Shown here: one piece after another, positions 7,952-13,307 of the stretch | How positions within the stretch are numbered: the stretch's first letter is position 1 | How the letters are laid out: each line of letters starts with the position of its first letter | Origin: a virus | Taxonomy: Duplodnaviria > Caudoviricetes | IMG/VR virus record: IMGVR_UViG_3300020049_002596 | Location: 1-64,000 of that record | Reading direction: 5' to 3' (one strand) | DNA length: 64,000 nucleotides | Program-made: the position numbers and the translations under genes | The notes under the pieces: generated by a model | The model's input: only the letters and a program-made list of their open reading frames with translations | Told to the model about the DNA's origin: nothing | Databases searched by the model: none

Positions 7952-9109
7952 CTATTCCGTATCATCAACAACTTCTATTATTGACTGCCATGCTCTTACA
8001 TGTACCATTTCTGCATTTAATTGAGTAGCTTGTTGTGCTCTTAACATTTGCAAATCATAAGTCTCTTGTAAAGGTCTTATCCTTTCAACTAAAGATTGTG
8101 CAGTTTGAGGAGAGACACTATCAACAATATTACCATTAGCATCTATGAAAGAATTTAAAGCTGTATAAGGATAAACTGTATGGGCAGTTTCTTCTTCATT
8201 ACTGTCTTCAAAGTCTTCATCTAACCAATCTTCATCATCTTGATCATCTTCATTAGACAATTCAGGTTGATGGTCAAATAAAGCAGCTTCAGCTTGTATT
8301 TCAGCCAATTCTCTAGCTTCTGCTGAGAGTTGTGCAATGCTACCAGTCACATTGTGGGTAACATACAGATTTTCTACAACAGGAGTAGCTTCATTGTCAA
8401 ACAGCATAGCTTCTTCTTCTACGGAAAGTTCTTCTCTATGAATTACTACAGGTTCAAATTCTTGCTCAACAAAGATGTCCTCTCCTCCATTGTGCAAAAA
8501 GTCTGGTAGTACTTGATTCATATAGGCTTCTAATTGTGTCAAAGACTTAGTCTTTTTGACTTCAAATAATCTTGCAAAGGTATTCTTCTCAATTTCTGAT
8601 GAGGGAATCACTCTTACCTCTATACCTTTTTCATAGCAAGATTGTAATATTTCTTTTTGAAGTCTCCTATTTAAAGGAGTTAGACCAGGGTCAGTGAAAA
8701 AAGAAGTGGAATAAAATAAAACGTAATTATTGTAGGAGAATGTTCCTTCATTGTATAAGTCAGAGAACTTAGCAACTTCAGGACTAAAGTAAGCTTCCTT
8801 TTTCATAGCACATACCATTAAAGGTACTCTCTGCTCTGAAAAGAAAACTCCTTTTGCTATAAAAAACTTTCTGTTGTTAATGGCTATTTCTCTAGCAGTA
8901 TGCCCATACTGAAAACCATCTTTAATGTTTTTAAGAGTATTGGGCTTTCTGATAACAATTTCAAAACTAGGTTTAGAATACATTTGGATATCTTCTATAC
9001 TAAAACTATTTTGTACAGAAACTAGAGGAATAAATTCATTAGCAATAAAAGCAGTCATATCAAAATTAGAAGGTTCAAACCTTCCCAGATTGTTACAGCT
9101 AATTATCAT
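7952..9109 (-). CDS. Hypothetical protein with acidic C-terminal region, coupled to the E1 gene
   Basis: 385 aa; 4-nt overlap with the ThiF gene; EDDQDDEDWLDEDFED tract. Confidence 0.7.
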   Translation of the reverse strand: MIISCNNLGRFEPSNFDMTAFIANEFIPLVSVQNSFSIEDIQMYSKPSFEIVIRKPNTLKNIKDGFQYGHTAREIAINNRKFFIAKGVFFSEQRVPLMVCAMKKEAYFSPEVAKFSDLYNEGTFSYNNYVLFYSTSFFTDPGLTPLNRRLQKEILQSCYEKGIEVRVIPSSEIEKNTFARLFEVKKTKSLTQLEAYMNQVLPDFLHNGGEDIFVEQEFEPVVIHREELSVEEEAMLFDNEATPVVENLYVTHNVTGSIAQLSAEARELAEIQAEAALFDHQPELSNEDDQDDEDWLDEDFEDSNEEETAHTVYPYTALNSFIDANGNIVDSVSPQTAQSLVERIRPLQETYDLQMLRAQQATQLNAEMVHVRAWQSIIEVVDDTE

Positions 9110-9804
9110 AATTCTGATTGTGTGAAATTCATAGGAACCACAAATTCATAATAAAAAGGGACCTCTCTGATAGTCTCTCCTGCATAGACATTAGCAATGT
9201 GATTGGTAAAGAAAGCAGACATAATAGAACCTATCATACCTGCAGTATGAGAAGTCTGTTTCATAGTACAAGGAGCTTCATTCACAACATTGTCATGAAA
9301 CAAATGCTCTCTTTCATACTTATCTGCATTCTCAGGAGTAACACAGAATATCTGTAATTGCTCTAACTCTAATCTACCATCTATAAAGATAGGCATATTC
9401 ATAGAGGGAGCAGAACCCCAAGATTCTTTCCAATTATGGAATAAAGTATTTCTAGCTTCCATATTATCAAAAGCAGAAAAACTGTAATAATGATGAGGAG
9501 TTACTCTAGTAACTCTCTCATTAAAAGTAGATATTCTTCCTCCACAAAACATATTAACTACAGCTTCAATAGCAGTTACTTTGGGAATTCCTAGGTCTTG
9601 TTGTCTAAATAACTGTCCACCTAAATTATGGTCTTCAACAAGGTCAAAATCATAAAGATTAACCTTAAAACCAATTTTAGTTAGAAAGAATACTAACCAA
9701 GAACCAATACCACCAGCTCCTCCTACTAAACAAATCTCATTGTTTCTAGGGAACCATGGTGCATCTTTAAATCTACTTTGCTGGTTGTTGCTTTCTTGCC
9801 TCAT
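9106..9804 (-). CDS. ThiF/E1-family ubiquitin-like activating enzyme
   Basis: GAGGIG, DFDLVEDHNLGGQ, AFDN, IDGR, candidate catalytic Cys in EAPCT. Confidence 0.9.
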   Translation of the reverse strand: MRQESNNQQSRFKDAPWFPRNNEICLVGGAGGIGSWLVFFLTKIGFKVNLYDFDLVEDHNLGGQLFRQQDLGIPKVTAIEAVVNMFCGGRISTFNERVTRVTPHHYYSFSAFDNMEARNTLFHNWKESWGSAPSMNMPIFIDGRLELEQLQIFCVTPENADKYEREHLFHDNVVNEAPCTMKQTSHTAGMIGSIMSAFFTNHIANVYAGETIREVPFYYEFVVPMNFTQSEL

Positions 9805-10951
9805 TTTCTAAGAATTTATTAATCATTGAACTAATAGTTGAAATAGACAATCTGATTTCAGGGTATTGTAAAACCATGTCTTCTAACAAGTCTGTAACTT
9901 CATGAGTGTACTGAACAAAATCAACAGAAGATGCTTTTGGAAAATGTTTAGCAAAAGTAGGGGCATAATCATTGATTACACTTTTAGCTATCTCTTGAGG
10001 GCTAAGGTTATACTCAGCTAAATCATCTAGCACATCTTCTAGGTATTGTTCTTCATCTTGAGGTCCTGTGGCATAAGTAAACAAACTTTTTGCAAACTCA
10101 TAGATCTCAATTGCATGTAAGTCAACATCTTGCAAGTCTTCAAAGTCTGTAAACAGAGCTTGAGCAGGTTCTTGCCAATCATCAAACCATCTTTTGATAG
10201 GTTTTTCAGGTTGTGGAGTAGTAGTGGTTCTAGACCAACCTTGTCCTGCAGTCCCTGTGTGGTTTGCACCCCAACCTCCTTGATTAACAACATTACTGGG
10301 TTTCACAGGTTTAGGCTCCATAATCTTAGCTACTTGAGCTGCAAATGATTCAGAAACTACCTCTTGAACTAGAGGAGTAATCATCTCACAGTCATAGATA
10401 AACAACTTTTGAGTGTTAACTTCAAAGTCTTGTTTTTCAATAACATAATCATGGCCTTGTACATTTTTAGCTGTATAAGGAACCTGTTTAATATCTCTTT
10501 TAGCTTCTCCTATAAAAGCAACTTTAGCTAGGAAGTCCATAGCATTATTTACAATTAAAGATAAGTAAAAGTTATGTGCTGGAGCATTATCATTTAGCTC
10601 AGCCATGTCTGTACCTGAAAAGAAAACTGCCATACTGTTATGACTATGGATATGACCTAGTTTCCAAGTGCATCTTTCTTCAAAATCTTCTTCAATAAAA
10701 TCCATAAATCTATCATCAAGACTATACTCAGTGTAAGCTTGAGAACCCATATCTAATGGAAGGATTGTTTTTAAAGTTATTTTGAAAGTTTCAGGATTTT
10801 CAATACTACCTTCAGTAGTATAAAATAAAGCACCTGACCACTCTACTTTTGATATCTTTTTACAAAGATACTGTATCTGATGTAACACCTCTTTGGGCAT
10901 TGTTACTGGTATGATAGAGCCTAGCTGCACTCTTGACAACTGCTTTCTCAT
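9773..10951 (-). CDS. JAB/MPN+ metallo-isopeptidase
   Basis: EWSG plus exact JAMM motif HSH-x7-S-x2-D (HSHNSMAVFFSGTD); start taken at MRKQL 10951, the track starts at 10981. Confidence 0.88.
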   Translation of the reverse strand: MRKQLSRVQLGSIIPVTMPKEVLHQIQYLCKKISKVEWSGALFYTTEGSIENPETFKITLKTILPLDMGSQAYTEYSLDDRFMDFIEEDFEERCTWKLGHIHSHNSMAVFFSGTDMAELNDNAPAHNFYLSLIVNNAMDFLAKVAFIGEAKRDIKQVPYTAKNVQGHDYVIEKQDFEVNTQKLFIYDCEMITPLVQEVVSESFAAQVAKIMEPKPVKPSNVVNQGGWGANHTGTAGQGWSRTTTTPQPEKPIKRWFDDWQEPAQALFTDFEDLQDVDLHAIEIYEFAKSLFTYATGPQDEEQYLEDVLDDLAEYNLSPQEIAKSVINDYAPTFAKHFPKASSVDFVQYTHEVTDLLEDMVLQYPEIRLSISTISSMINKFLENEARKQQPAK

Positions 10952-12053
10952 AGATTCTTGACTCAAGTTCTCTAATGACATAATCTAAAAAATTAGGATA
11001 AATAATATGATCTTCTATTGATACAGGTTTTGATAACCTAGTATCTTCTTTAATAATTTTAGGGTAAAGTTTTCTACCTCTAAAAAGTGTGTAATCTTCT
11101 GTGGCCTGGATTTTAACTCCAACAGTGCCAACAGCATTTTCAGCTTTCATTTGTAGAAAGTGATTATAAGTATTTGGTACTCTACTTACAAGAATAGTTT
11201 GATATTCACTAAAAGTTAAGCAAGTTAAAGCTACTCTTTTAATAAATTCAGATGCTCTGACATTAGGGTGTATTTTATAAAGACCTTCTGATATGTAAAA
11301 ATCTACATCTAAAGGAATTTTTTGGTCCATAATTGTCTTTAAAATTTTGTTAGCATATCTTGAGTTTATACTACTAACTCTAACAGAGTCAGCATTTTTA
11401 ACTGTTTCCATTCTAATAAAAGGTACCCCTTCTAAAGATTCCCAAGTAATCATACTATCTACACAGAATAAGAATAGTTCATATCTATCCATATCCATAT
11501 CTACACTAAATTCAGCCATCATTCTGCTCACATCAGTGTCTCCACCAACACAGAAATAGCTACAATACAAAGGCTCTAATTGCCAACCTCTGTGAGTACC
11601 TAAATGACTTTGTTGATACCCTGAAAGAATTTCTAATTTTGTTTTAGACAATCTTCCACCCTCTAATTTAGAAGGATAAAGTGCTTCTCCATTCCATTTA
11701 AATAAATGAATTACAAATAGATCTTTTATCTCATGAGTTTTTCCTTGACTATTAGTAATAATGTACTTAGGATAAAAAACTTTAAAGTAAGGTATAAATT
11801 CTATTCCATTATAAAAGAAGTCTAAGTCAGCTTGATCTTTGTATTTAGCTTCAAACAAATCTAATATTGCAAAGAAGTCTTCAGATAATTTAGTGACATC
11901 ACTAATACCTTCAGCTCCTTCAAAAACAATATGAAATTTTTCAATCAGCTTTTTTAAGAACTTCTTGTTCTTATGTTGACTGGTTAAAACAGCATTATGG
12001 AGGATTCTAGCAATATTGCCACCTCCTGTATTAGCTTTTATTGATCTTGACAT
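10860..12053 (-). CDS. Putative prokaryotic E2-like conjugating protein
   Basis: SHLG...YFCVGG resembles the E2 His...Cys-x-Gly signature; lies between the Ubl and JAB genes. Confidence 0.55.
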   Translation of the reverse strand: MSRSIKANTGGGNIARILHNAVLTSQHKNKKFLKKLIEKFHIVFEGAEGISDVTKLSEDFFAILDLFEAKYKDQADLDFFYNGIEFIPYFKVFYPKYIITNSQGKTHEIKDLFVIHLFKWNGEALYPSKLEGGRLSKTKLEILSGYQQSHLGTHRGWQLEPLYCSYFCVGGDTDVSRMMAEFSVDMDMDRYELFLFCVDSMITWESLEGVPFIRMETVKNADSVRVSSINSRYANKILKTIMDQKIPLDVDFYISEGLYKIHPNVRASEFIKRVALTCLTFSEYQTILVSRVPNTYNHFLQMKAENAVGTVGVKIQATEDYTLFRGRKLYPKIIKEDTRLSKPVSIEDHIIYPNFLDYVIRELESRIYEKAVVKSAARLYHTSNNAQRGVTSDTVSL

Positions 12054-12056
12054 AAT

Positions 12057-12095
12057 AAAAAAATTAAAGGGCTTACATTAAATAAGCCCTTAATT
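12057..12095 (-). terminator. Intrinsic terminator after the Ubl gene
   Basis: AGGGCTTA/TAAGCCCT stem (12068-12090) followed by a T-run on the minus strand. Confidence 0.7.
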
Positions 12096-12099
12096 AATA

Positions 12100-12762
12100 C
12101 TAGTAACCTAATTCTCTAGCTTCTTTAGCTAAGTCACTTTCTTCAGAGTCAGAGTCAGAAAAACTAACTTCTTGTAAAAGTCTGTTCAAGTGCTTGTTAG
12201 CTTTGTAGTGAGAATCATAGCTATCCAAAGAAGAGATTAAGGCAATAGCCTCTTCTACTTTCTCAACATCAGTCAAGTCAGTATCATCTACTGCTGGAAG
12301 AGTTCCAACAACTTCTCTAACTGATTCATTCACACTTCTGCTGTTAGCAGTAGTAGCTTTAACACAATACTTAGCAACTAAGTCTTGTACTGTTGCAGTA
12401 GGTAACTGAGTTACATTTCTACCATTGATGCTAAACTTAGCCTTGTCTTCAGGATGGTTTAACAAATGTACTTTGATTGCAGCAAAACATTCTTTTCTGT
12501 CAAGAGCACCTGACTTAGTTTGTTTTGGTCTTAAGAACAATCTGAAAGCAGATGTTGGTAACACAGCTAAATCATTTACTAAGTCTGTCTTAGTAATGTT
12601 CTCAGCTGCTAATAATGATGACAAATCAAACCCTGCATTTCTTACAAGAGGTTGTAATTCTCCCCAAGTAGTTACATCAGTAGTTATTTTTTGCATTTGG
12701 CCACCTCTTGTGGCATAAATTGTGATCTCTCTAGAGATACCTGGAGCTTGTACTTCACTCAT
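12100..12762 (-). CDS. Putative ubiquitin-like (beta-grasp) precursor with C-terminal extension
   Basis: Residues ~11-85 show a beta-beta-alpha (TTWGELQPLV)-beta pattern ending FRLFLRPKQTKSG85, followed by a helical domain; first gene of the E2/JAB/E1 cluster. Confidence 0.55.
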   Translation of the reverse strand: MSEVQAPGISREITIYATRGGQMQKITTDVTTWGELQPLVRNAGFDLSSLLAAENITKTDLVNDLAVLPTSAFRLFLRPKQTKSGALDRKECFAAIKVHLLNHPEDKAKFSINGRNVTQLPTATVQDLVAKYCVKATTANSRSVNESVREVVGTLPAVDDTDLTDVEKVEEAIALISSLDSYDSHYKANKHLNRLLQEVSFSDSDSEESDLAKEARELGY

Positions 12763-12773
12763 GGTTTTAAATT

Positions 12774-13307
12774 TTAAAGATTAATTAATTCTTTTTGTCC
12801 TTTCTTTTTCAAGAGGATGTTTATGTGTTTAAGGTTGATATACAATCCTTTGAACACATAATTATAATCTACATTTATAGGAATTTGATGAATTGTTTCA
12901 TCATCATAATTGATCACATTAAATATGGTCTTAGCAGGTAGATTAGCTGTATAACCCTGTGATTTTGTTGTTGGCAATAGCCAAATGCAAGGATTACTCC
13001 TCGCAATAAAATAGATAACTTTCTTAATGAATGAAGCCCAATACTCACTATGGTCTGCATTAGCCCCATAAGTTAGAGACATTCTCAGAAAAAATAGGCC
13101 TTCTTGTACTATAGGAGAAGCTTCTTCTCTAGCTATTAGCACAACCTTAATTTCTGATACAGGCATAGAAAAAACCCTGAATACTTCATCAGCTTCAGGG
13201 TAATATTTTTCTTGGGGTAATATTTCATTCTTGAAATGAAGGAAAGCATCTGTGTTAAACTCACTCAGGAGTGGCCTCCAAGAGTAATGAATTAAACTAA
13301 AATTCAT
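12774..13307 (-). CDS. Degenerate uracil-DNA glycosylase (family 1) homolog
   Basis: HYSW...YP...VFRVF...IKVVL matches the UNG N-terminus, but GQDPY and HPSP are absent. Confidence 0.6.
   Translation of the reverse strand: MNFSLIHYSWRPLLSEFNTDAFLHFKNEILPQEKYYPEADEVFRVFSMPVSEIKVVLIAREEASPIVQEGLFFLRMSLTYGANADHSEYWASFIKKVIYFIARSNPCIWLLPTTKSQGYTANLPAKTIFNVINYDDETIHQIPINVDYNYVFKGLYINLKHINILLKKKGQKELINL

Follow-up and report, generated by a model that had tools for sequence, protein, structure and literature searches.

Can a bacterial virus run a protein-tagging pathway of its own? The question is raised by a cassette of five genes at positions 7952-12762 of the window, which here means the whole stretch of DNA that was analysed (64,000 nucleotides, positions 1 to 64,000 of the IMG/VR record IMGVR_UViG_3300020049_002596). 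The source record is a complete virus genome of 95,512 bases, and the phage carrying the cassette is crAss-like, with a genome of about 95 kb. To our knowledge, work on the conjugation of ubiquitin-like proteins (Ubl) in bacteria has until now characterised it solely as anti-phage host defence (Bil, CBASS Cap2/3 and probably Bub). The first four genes of the cassette, designated gA, gB, gC and gD, encode in this order a predicted Ubl precursor, a protein resembling ubiquitin-conjugating enzymes (E2), a JAB protease and an enzyme of the ubiquitin-activating type (E1), and are followed by a fifth gene, gE. The set is a real, conserved, phage-encoded Ubl-E2-like-JAB-E1 module. Support is good for its Ubl, protease and E1, the E2 role is probable, and with a probability of roughly 60% the module serves to activate and conjugate a ubiquitin-like protein.

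An earlier note on this DNA, made from the letters alone, had read gA-gD as a phage-encoded conjugation operon with the fifth gene coupled downstream. The list of open reading frames (ORFs) confirms this cluster as five co-oriented minus-strand ORFs, and all the motifs quoted for gA-gD were found in the translations. The motifs stand above chance: gD passes the Pfam ThiF cut-off, the motif residues are invariant or nearly invariant across homologs, and the four-gene order recurs. Further expectations of the note, namely a beta-grasp at the N-terminus of gA, a ubiquitin-conjugating (UBC) fold in gB, conservation of the presumed reactive glycine and of the presumed catalytic cysteines of E1 and E2, and synteny across related phages, were all borne out in the comparisons described below. 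These comparisons were made with 50 related loci, comprising 47 IMG/VR loci recovered via the gB family together with FpV4, cr111_1 and crAss001, and AlphaFold2-type structure models were made for two proteins, gA and gB.

The ubiquitin-like protein and its removable extension

The gA gene (12762-12100, minus strand) encodes 220 amino acids, for which 621 relatives were found in a word-indexed search. The AlphaFold2 model, built on 27 relatives, shows strands at residues 11-17, 23-28, 45-53 and 73-79 and a helix at 33-42, giving the order strand-strand-helix-strand-strand, followed by a disordered tail at residues 81-85. Foldseek places ubiquitin, UBL, UBX and MoaD domains at almost all of the top positions for this model (E 0.016-0.1, with probabilities reaching 0.99), and VIA-align yields UBL or UBX domains for nearly all of its top 50, with Z 5.0-6.5 across model residues 4-90 and the best match aligned over 4-78. 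Both searches point to a ubiquitin-type beta-grasp for residues 5-84. The Ubl domain as a whole is assigned to residues 1-85 (12508-12762, minus strand), with a flexible tail ending in K-S-G85.

The tail motif LRPKQTKSG ends at Gly85, which is kept in all 45 distinct gA homologs obtained from the 50 loci, and the sequence which follows it ranges from 1 to 206 residues. Six related phages encode the Ubl as a stand-alone protein of 77-90 amino acids, with a stop 1-5 residues past the glycine and with ends such as ...KSGK, ...KSGI, ...KSGNE, ...KSGNKN and ...KSGNEKKH. These stand-alone forms give strong comparative support to the suggestion of the earlier note that Gly85 is an internal processing site. 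Because the glycine is universal, is followed by anything from 1 to 206 residues and nearly ends the protein in stand-alone forms, gA is expected to behave as a Ubl precursor.

The removable C-terminal extension comprises residues 86-220 (12100-12507, minus strand), as delimited by the model and by length variation. In the AlphaFold2 model it consists of helices at residues 89-137 and 165-217 joined by a disordered linker at 135-157, and it ends, after the variable linker, in a conserved acidic helix (...EARELGY). The helical segment past the glycine and the terminal acidic helix both recur in distant long forms of gA. The extension appears to be dispensable to the core pathway but non-random.

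Several observations concern the end of this extension. The acidic amphipathic motif E-E-x-x-L-A-R-E-A-R-E-L-G-Y, encoded by the last approximately 20 codons of gA (12100-12160), recurs at the very end of long Ubl precursors, and endings of the EARELGY type are found in the distant relatives FpV4, L023, L026, L035 and L048. In another locus (L036, 5614-5748) a stand-alone Ubl of 83 amino acids is followed by a 44-amino-acid ORF ending in EANKLY, the start codon of which overlaps the Ubl stop codon. This ending resembles that of the window protein, and therefore the Ubl extension may be a functional polypeptide itself. A SAP/HeH domain was also considered for the extension; the window protein gave no match, and a single sub-threshold match was obtained in one relative (L045; PF18953, E 1.5e-4), which is kept as a hint.

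The JAB protease

The gC gene (10981-9773, minus strand; 402 amino acids), the first 41 codons of which overlap the end of gB, encodes a predicted JAB/JAMM metalloprotease domain at residues ~28-150 and a C-terminal helical region of about 250 amino acids. Its motif EWSG...HSHNSMAVFFSGTD corresponds to E...HxHx7SxxD, that is, to an exact JAMM arrangement E47...H112-x-H114-x7-S122-x2-D125. Among 42 homologs S122 and D125 are invariant, and E47, H112 and H114 are each present in at least 88%. The protein also matches the PADLOC JAB model (E 7.7e-4), and its assignment as a JAB/JAMM protease with an intact motif is well supported at the level of sequence.

In two related loci (L036, 7299-8399; L039, 7349-8503) an insert of about 1.1 kb interrupts the JAB gene within the JAMM motif, between ...HTH and MNCFFSGTD. 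The insert of L036 carries on the opposite strand an ORF of 260 amino acids with two LAGLIDADG-like motifs, which suggests that it encodes a homing endonuclease. In the PHROGs database, too, the JAB protein is divided there into two families.

The activating enzyme and the question of sulfur transfer

The gD gene (9804-9106, minus strand) encodes 232 amino acids that correspond to a minimal, single-domain E1 of the ThiF/MoeB type. The protein passes the Pfam ThiF model (PF00899) with 50.9 bits against a cut-off of 28.1 (E 1.5e-13), and the NCBIfam models ThiF, PRTRC_ThiF, MoeB and SAMP-E1 all match it, all far under their family cut-offs; by sequence, its best relatives of solved structure are UBA5 and the NEDD8 E1. 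The motifs GAGGIG, DFDLVEDHNL and EAPCT are present. In 39 homologs the residues G29, G31, D52, D54, N60, Q64, K75, D113, R118, R144, Y163, C179 and N201 are invariant, including those of the nucleotide site (GxGxxG with G29 and G31, DxD, K75, D113 and R118) and Cys179, which we take to lie at the position of the conserved cysteine of MoeB and ThiF in the crossover region. The predicted E1 identity of gD is well supported by these data.

A small ThiF-like E1 with 29% identity was also noticed in Xanthomonas phages of about 228 kb (Xanthomonas jumbo phage PhiXhv-15, L004, 4932-5615). The other module genes were not detected alongside it, and it adjoins genes for an 892-amino-acid hypothetical protein and for topoisomerase.

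The resemblance of gD to ThiF and MoeB raises the possibility that the Ubl is a sulfur carrier, as are ThiS, MoaD, CysO and TtuB: gD would adenylate the Ubl, the thiocarboxylate then made from it would donate sulfur for a thio-modification of DNA, tRNA or a cofactor, the JAB protein would trim the precursor, and gB would use the sulfur. The best profile matches of gD are indeed adenylyltransferases of this type, its Cys179 probably occupies the place of their conserved cysteine, the module lies among DNA-metabolism genes, and bacterial trios of Ubl, E1 and JAB without an E2 serve sulfur transfer (Iyer et al. 2006). Yet the complete 95.5-kb genome gave no match for rhodanese, cysteine desulfurase, PP-loop ATPase, ThiG or MoaE, all in a search that did match control genomes; gD has no rhodanese domain, the partner protein gB is modelled with an E2-type fold, and the Ubl, unlike ThiS or MoaD, has long removable extensions. 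Since host enzymes could supply the sulfur, the absence of these genes only weakens such an explanation, which on balance is regarded as improbable; conjugation to protein stays the preferred reading.

The E2-like protein

The gB gene (12053-10860, minus strand) encodes 397 amino acids, and its model is of good confidence (predicted local distance difference test score (pLDDT) 83.8, predicted template modelling score (pTM) 0.74). Residues ~25-210 (11424-11981, minus strand) are modelled as a long helix with a meander of four strands and additional helices, which together are predicted to form a domain of the UBC/UEV/RWD (E2-fold) kind. The best VIA-align match is the UEV domain of Tsg101 (Z 6.8, root-mean-square deviation 3.5 A, 131 of 142 residues), and the structure match lists contain GCN2 and other RWD domains, UEV domains, many E2s, Atg3 and Atg10; a structure search independent of Foldseek returned BubB of Citrobacter, a bacterial E2, at Z 4.5. 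What argues for the predicted fold is the uniformity of these lists within the UBC superfold, rather than the middling Z values.

The motif SHL...FCVGG is present in the translation of gB. In 47 sequences down to 20% identity the residues His150, Phe167, Cys168, Gly170, Glu205, Ser206 and Pro211 are invariant. In the model His150 and Cys168 sit between strand 4 and the next long helix. E2 enzymes hold the HPN motif and the catalytic cysteine in the segment between strand 4 and the following helix. A zinc site made of H107, H116, H150 and C168 was considered and rejected, since only H150 and C168 are invariant in the deep alignment.

The family of gB is very large: at E<=0.001 it counts 2,358 cluster representatives, almost without exception of about 400 amino acids. 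The Pfam, NCBIfam and PADLOC profiles gave no recognition of gB, and a Pfam scan of 47 members of the family gave no relevant match at E<=0.01, the sole stray hit being Peptidase_C39. The gB profile searched against PDB sequences found a chance match only, a Protein Atlas search with gB and gE returned noise (nucleoporin families, with the Atlas models' own pLDDT at ~0.3), and an hhalign comparison of the family profile with two Prok-E2_B domains from bacterial genomes, which has low power with single sequences, gave a probability of ~0.1%. Because no sequence profile recognises it, gB is a new family of E2-fold proteins; its E2 role is probable on the grounds of fold, context and conservation.

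The C-terminal part of gB, residues ~211-397 (10860-11423, minus strand), is an alpha/beta domain with a long helix, modelled with good confidence to residue ~380. Only weak helical matches and no fold match were obtained for it, and this domain is the candidate for target recognition, perhaps picking the protein to be tagged. The overlap of gB with gC (10860-10981) measures 125 nucleotides in FpV4 and ~60 nucleotides in crAss001 and cr111_1, and both of its frames look conserved among near relatives.

The same data bear on an E2-independent pathway, which remains the main rival of the proposed one. Here gC and gD would act as proposed, gB would be a non-catalytic UEV/RWD-like adaptor or an unrelated Cys/His enzyme, and the E1 would transfer the Ubl directly, as in SAMP/UbaA and TtuB/TtuC. 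It draws on the fact that the best fold matches of gB are the inactive UEV of Tsg101 and RWD of GCN2, and on the lack of sequence similarity between gB and any E2 family. Inactive UEV and RWD domains, though, lack the cysteine, whereas Cys168 and His150 are invariant in gB across the whole range of homologs and are located, in the model, where E2s hold their active site; moreover, gB is tied to the module just as strictly as are the E1 and the JAB protein. Direct transfer by the E1 is on these grounds considered unlikely.

The proposed pathway and its strength

The conjugation pathway, as it is proposed, would begin with the production of gA as a precursor made of an 85-residue Ubl domain and a 135-residue extension. 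The JAMM protease gC would cut after Gly85 (K-S-G|A), freeing the reactive C-terminus, and may later also strip the tag from its targets. Then gD would adenylate Gly85 with ATP and probably take the Ubl onto Cys179 as a thioester, from where the Ubl would move to Cys168 of gB with the assistance of His150. Finally, gB would hand the Ubl to lysines of the target, perhaps selected by its C-terminal domain. Precedents for the cleavage step exist in bacteria: the Ubl precursor BubAB is cut after an internal glycine by the JAB protein of its operon, BubCD (PMC11601596), and BilA is cut after a near-terminal glycine by BilC (PMC10557695).

The proposal starts from what the analysis shows, namely modelled folds, sequence motifs, conserved key residues, a fixed gene order and short Ubls that stand alone. 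From this we infer every chemical step (cleavage, thioester formation, conjugation) as well as the targets and the biological role, and this distance is the first of the points that weigh against the proposal. The score of gC against Pfam Prok-JAB is 14.1 bits, under the cut-off of 25. In gD a glycine replaces the canonical E1 arginine of N-L-x-R-Q (N60-L-G-G-Q64), and the CxxC zinc site is absent. The Z values of gB reach at most 6.8, in a range (Z < 8) for which the tool warns that a match can be a common arrangement; the equivalence of His150/Cys168 to the E2 active site is suggested by topology in the model and not by residue-level superposition; and neither sequence nor profile links gB to any E2 family (UQ_con, Prok-E2_A to Prok-E2_E). 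The module has no E3, and archaeal SAMP and Thermus TtuB are conjugated without an E2, which shows that this enzyme is not strictly needed.

Gene order, terminator and distribution

The order gA-gB-gC-gD is kept in all 50 loci wherever the locus is long enough. Almost always the module comes directly after the primase gene, with or without a UDG gene. In the window the genes are closely packed: gA and gB are separated by a gap of 46 nucleotides, gB and gC overlap by 122 nucleotides, and gC and gD by 32.

The gap between gA and gB contains a terminator-like hairpin (12067-12091, minus strand), with a stem of 10 bp followed by a run of T. Under a strict rule such a hairpin is found at 26 of 41 distinct gA/gB junctions of the relatives, including FpV4 and crAss001, and its position is kept with unrelated sequences; the other junctions among the nine conserved genes of the related loci have no terminator-like hairpin. 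The restriction to this one junction indicates that the Ubl gene probably ends a transcription unit or precedes an attenuator. By this arrangement the hairpin probably raises the Ubl transcripts above those of the enzymes.

At the nucleotide level, a megablast search of the cassette region against 50,697 phage records gave zero matches, and relatives are detectable at the protein level only. The nearest belong to the Flavobacterium psychrophilum FpV4 group (E1 55% identical), followed by the crAss-like Steigviridae, including the cultured crAss001 and DAC15, with 33-39% identity. In crAss001 the counterparts of gA-gD are gp79-gp76. In the FpV4 and Steigviridae records the annotations of the gA-gE homologs read, in this order, hypothetical, hypothetical, metalloprotease, thiamine biosynthesis (ThiF) and hypothetical.

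Among prokaryotic genomes (185,579 bacterial and archaeal species), a search with two narrow peptide patterns found 2 loci only. One of them (L053, 5210-10673) lies in a large contig, of 640 kb, assigned to a metagenome-assembled genome of Bacilli, and holds the whole Ubl/E2-like/JAB/E1 module followed by a UDG gene. Its source could be a prophage, a host-binned episome or a chimeric assembly.

The fifth gene and the neighbouring genes

The fifth gene, gE (9109-7952, minus strand), encodes 385 amino acids with an acidic C-terminal third and is translationally coupled to gD, its start overlapping the gD stop by 4 nucleotides. Homologs were detected in 25 distinct relatives only and vary in length from 193 to 461 amino acids, the invariant residues being M1 and P28 only; no homolog was detected in crAss001, in cr111_1 and in about half of the divergent loci. 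Pfam, NCBIfam and PADLOC gave no match to gE, and the sole PHROG match was weak. With almost no conserved residues and such a patchy occurrence, the suggestion of the earlier note that gE could be an adaptor or a substrate is left without support, and its membership in the module is not established.

The module is embedded in the replication block of the phage, with DNA primase and UDG-like genes upstream and genes for a RusA-like resolvase and a PD-(D/E)XK exonuclease downstream. The UDG-like gene (12774-13307), located between the primase and Ubl genes, encodes 177 amino acids, of which UDG models match the first ~60 residues only (E 1e-5, far under the cut-offs). Its UDG-annotated homologs are longer (249 amino acids in FpV4 and 221 in crAss001), and the window protein may be a diverged or truncated UDG.

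This neighbourhood of primase, UDG, RusA-like and exonuclease genes brings in a further explanation, in which the Ubl would be joined to a non-protein partner (a lipid, a nucleotide or DNA end, a small molecule) or would undergo other C-terminal chemistry, for example a peptide modification of the MccB/PaaA type. E1-like adenylating enzymes serve several such chemistries. The sub-threshold SAP-like match in the Ubl extension of one relative agrees with a partner of this kind. The sequences themselves, in turn, give no pointer to a non-protein acceptor, and the nearest of the characterised operons with this composition and gene order form lysine isopeptides (PMC10557695). A non-protein acceptor is judged very unlikely, and protein lysines are kept as the proposed acceptors.

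Comparison with known systems

The earlier note had likened the cassette to PRTRC cassettes, to Bil and to Cap2/Cap3 of CBASS. The resemblance in kind holds, while membership in any of them does not, since the defining tests of each fail, and the module is set apart from Bil, Bub, PRTRC and CBASS as a variant in its own right.

The four functions and their Ubl-E2-JAB-E1 order are shared with the Bil system (BilA-BilB-BilC-BilD; Chambers et al., PMC10557695). The Bil Ubl carries residues past the reactive glycine which are removed by the JAB protein of the operon, as is proposed for gA; as in the phage module, a cysteine is present in both E1 and E2, and no E3 is found, the Bil E2 being proposed to choose the targets. 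The setting is different: Bil is a bacterial anti-phage defence, whereas the module lies in a phage of lytic type among replication genes. The proteins differ as well. The 232-amino-acid gD is a single adenylation domain with the cysteine in its core, without the inactive adenylation domain, the mobile CYS domain and the four-cysteine zinc site of the Bil E1. Compared with the Bil E2, gB has 397 amino acids, an extra C-terminal domain, a family undetected by profiles, and a conserved histidine which precedes the cysteine, whereas that of the Bil E2 follows it. The Ubl of the phages consists of one beta-grasp, with an extension that can reach 206 residues.

Type I Bub (formerly 6E.1; BubAB, BubCD, BubE; Ye et al., PMC11601596) resembles the phage module in having a long Ubl fusion which is cut by the operon JAB right after an internal conserved glycine, as is proposed for gA, and in an E1 that is likewise a minimal adenylation domain of the ThiF/UBA5-like type. 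Its E2 has diverged within the UBC fold and lacks the two C-terminal helices, and it is this BubB that matches the gB model at Z 4.5. However, Type I Bub works through serine and tyrosine oxyesters without catalytic cysteines, whereas Cys168 of gB and Cys179 of gD are invariant in the phage module; the Bub genes are Ubl-E2 and JAB-E1 fusions as against four separate phage genes; and the DUF6527 (BubE) protease was not found in a Pfam scan.

Among the predicted operons, type 6d (Iyer, Burroughs and Aravind 2006, PMC1779556) shares with the phage module a small Ubl whose C-terminal glycine is conserved, E2-like, JAB and E1-like proteins that each stand alone, the E2-like one having a conserved cysteine, and extra uncharacterised genes. 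Type 6d and the PRTRC plasmid cassettes are also alike to it in their carriage by mobile elements. PRTRC_ThiF (TIGR03736) is the second-best NCBIfam match of gD, at 34.7 bits as against a cut-off of 144.75, and the models for PRTRC A, B, C, E, F or ParB matched none of the nine module and flanking proteins scanned.

Cap2 and Cap3 of Type II CBASS employ E1, E2 and JAB chemistry in the conflict of phage and bacterium, as the module would, and the PADLOC CBASS E1-E2 models match gD weakly (best E 9e-5). CBASS, by contrast, has no separate Ubl, the CD-NTase itself being conjugated, and its E1 and E2 are fused, whereas in the phage module the Ubl, E1 and E2-like proteins are separate; neither a fused E1-E2 nor an adjacent cyclase was found at the module in the window.

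The only earlier-described pairing of Ubl and JAB in phages is that of TAPI (Ubl) and TAPK (JAB and NlpC/P60) of lambda and T1 tail assembly. In TAPI, as in gA, the Ubl is followed by a C-terminal domain with a predicted cut at a glycine. This pair has no E1 or E2 and is encoded in the tail-assembly block rather than in the replication block, and neither activation nor conjugation was proposed for it.

Significance for crAss-like phages

No description of the phage module was found in the full-text literature searched, from which most subscription journals are outside the coverage, and the kit was previously studied only as bacterial defence. The phages concerned are of the crAss-like lineage, which includes relatives of the most abundant human gut phages, with crAss001 and the Flavobacterium phage FpV4 as cultured models.

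A role in the core of the infection cycle is favoured over an accessory, counter-defence one because the module keeps its place next to the primase throughout a phage lineage that is old and very large; this preference is an inference. In its widest form the proposal states that the crAss-like phages, meaning the Steigviridae with crAss001, the FpV4 group and uncultured relatives by the thousand, run a full Ubl cascade as a core and ancient part of their infection cycle, with a new E2 family, a precursor Ubl and a functional released extension, and that their tagging, aimed at replication proteins of the phage or at proteins of the host, goes beyond countering a defence. This wider picture is tentative, and we would place it a little short of even odds.

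If the reading is true, bacterial viruses themselves use protein tagging, and a complete tagging kit is a constant component of the replication block throughout a very large lineage of phages. The ubiquitin superfamily would be joined by a new E2 family, the 2,358 cluster representatives of which have no Pfam model, and four widespread uncharacterised genes would gain a testable role, for which the stand-alone and extended forms of the Ubl and the terminator behind its gene would offer simple and direct experimental handles.

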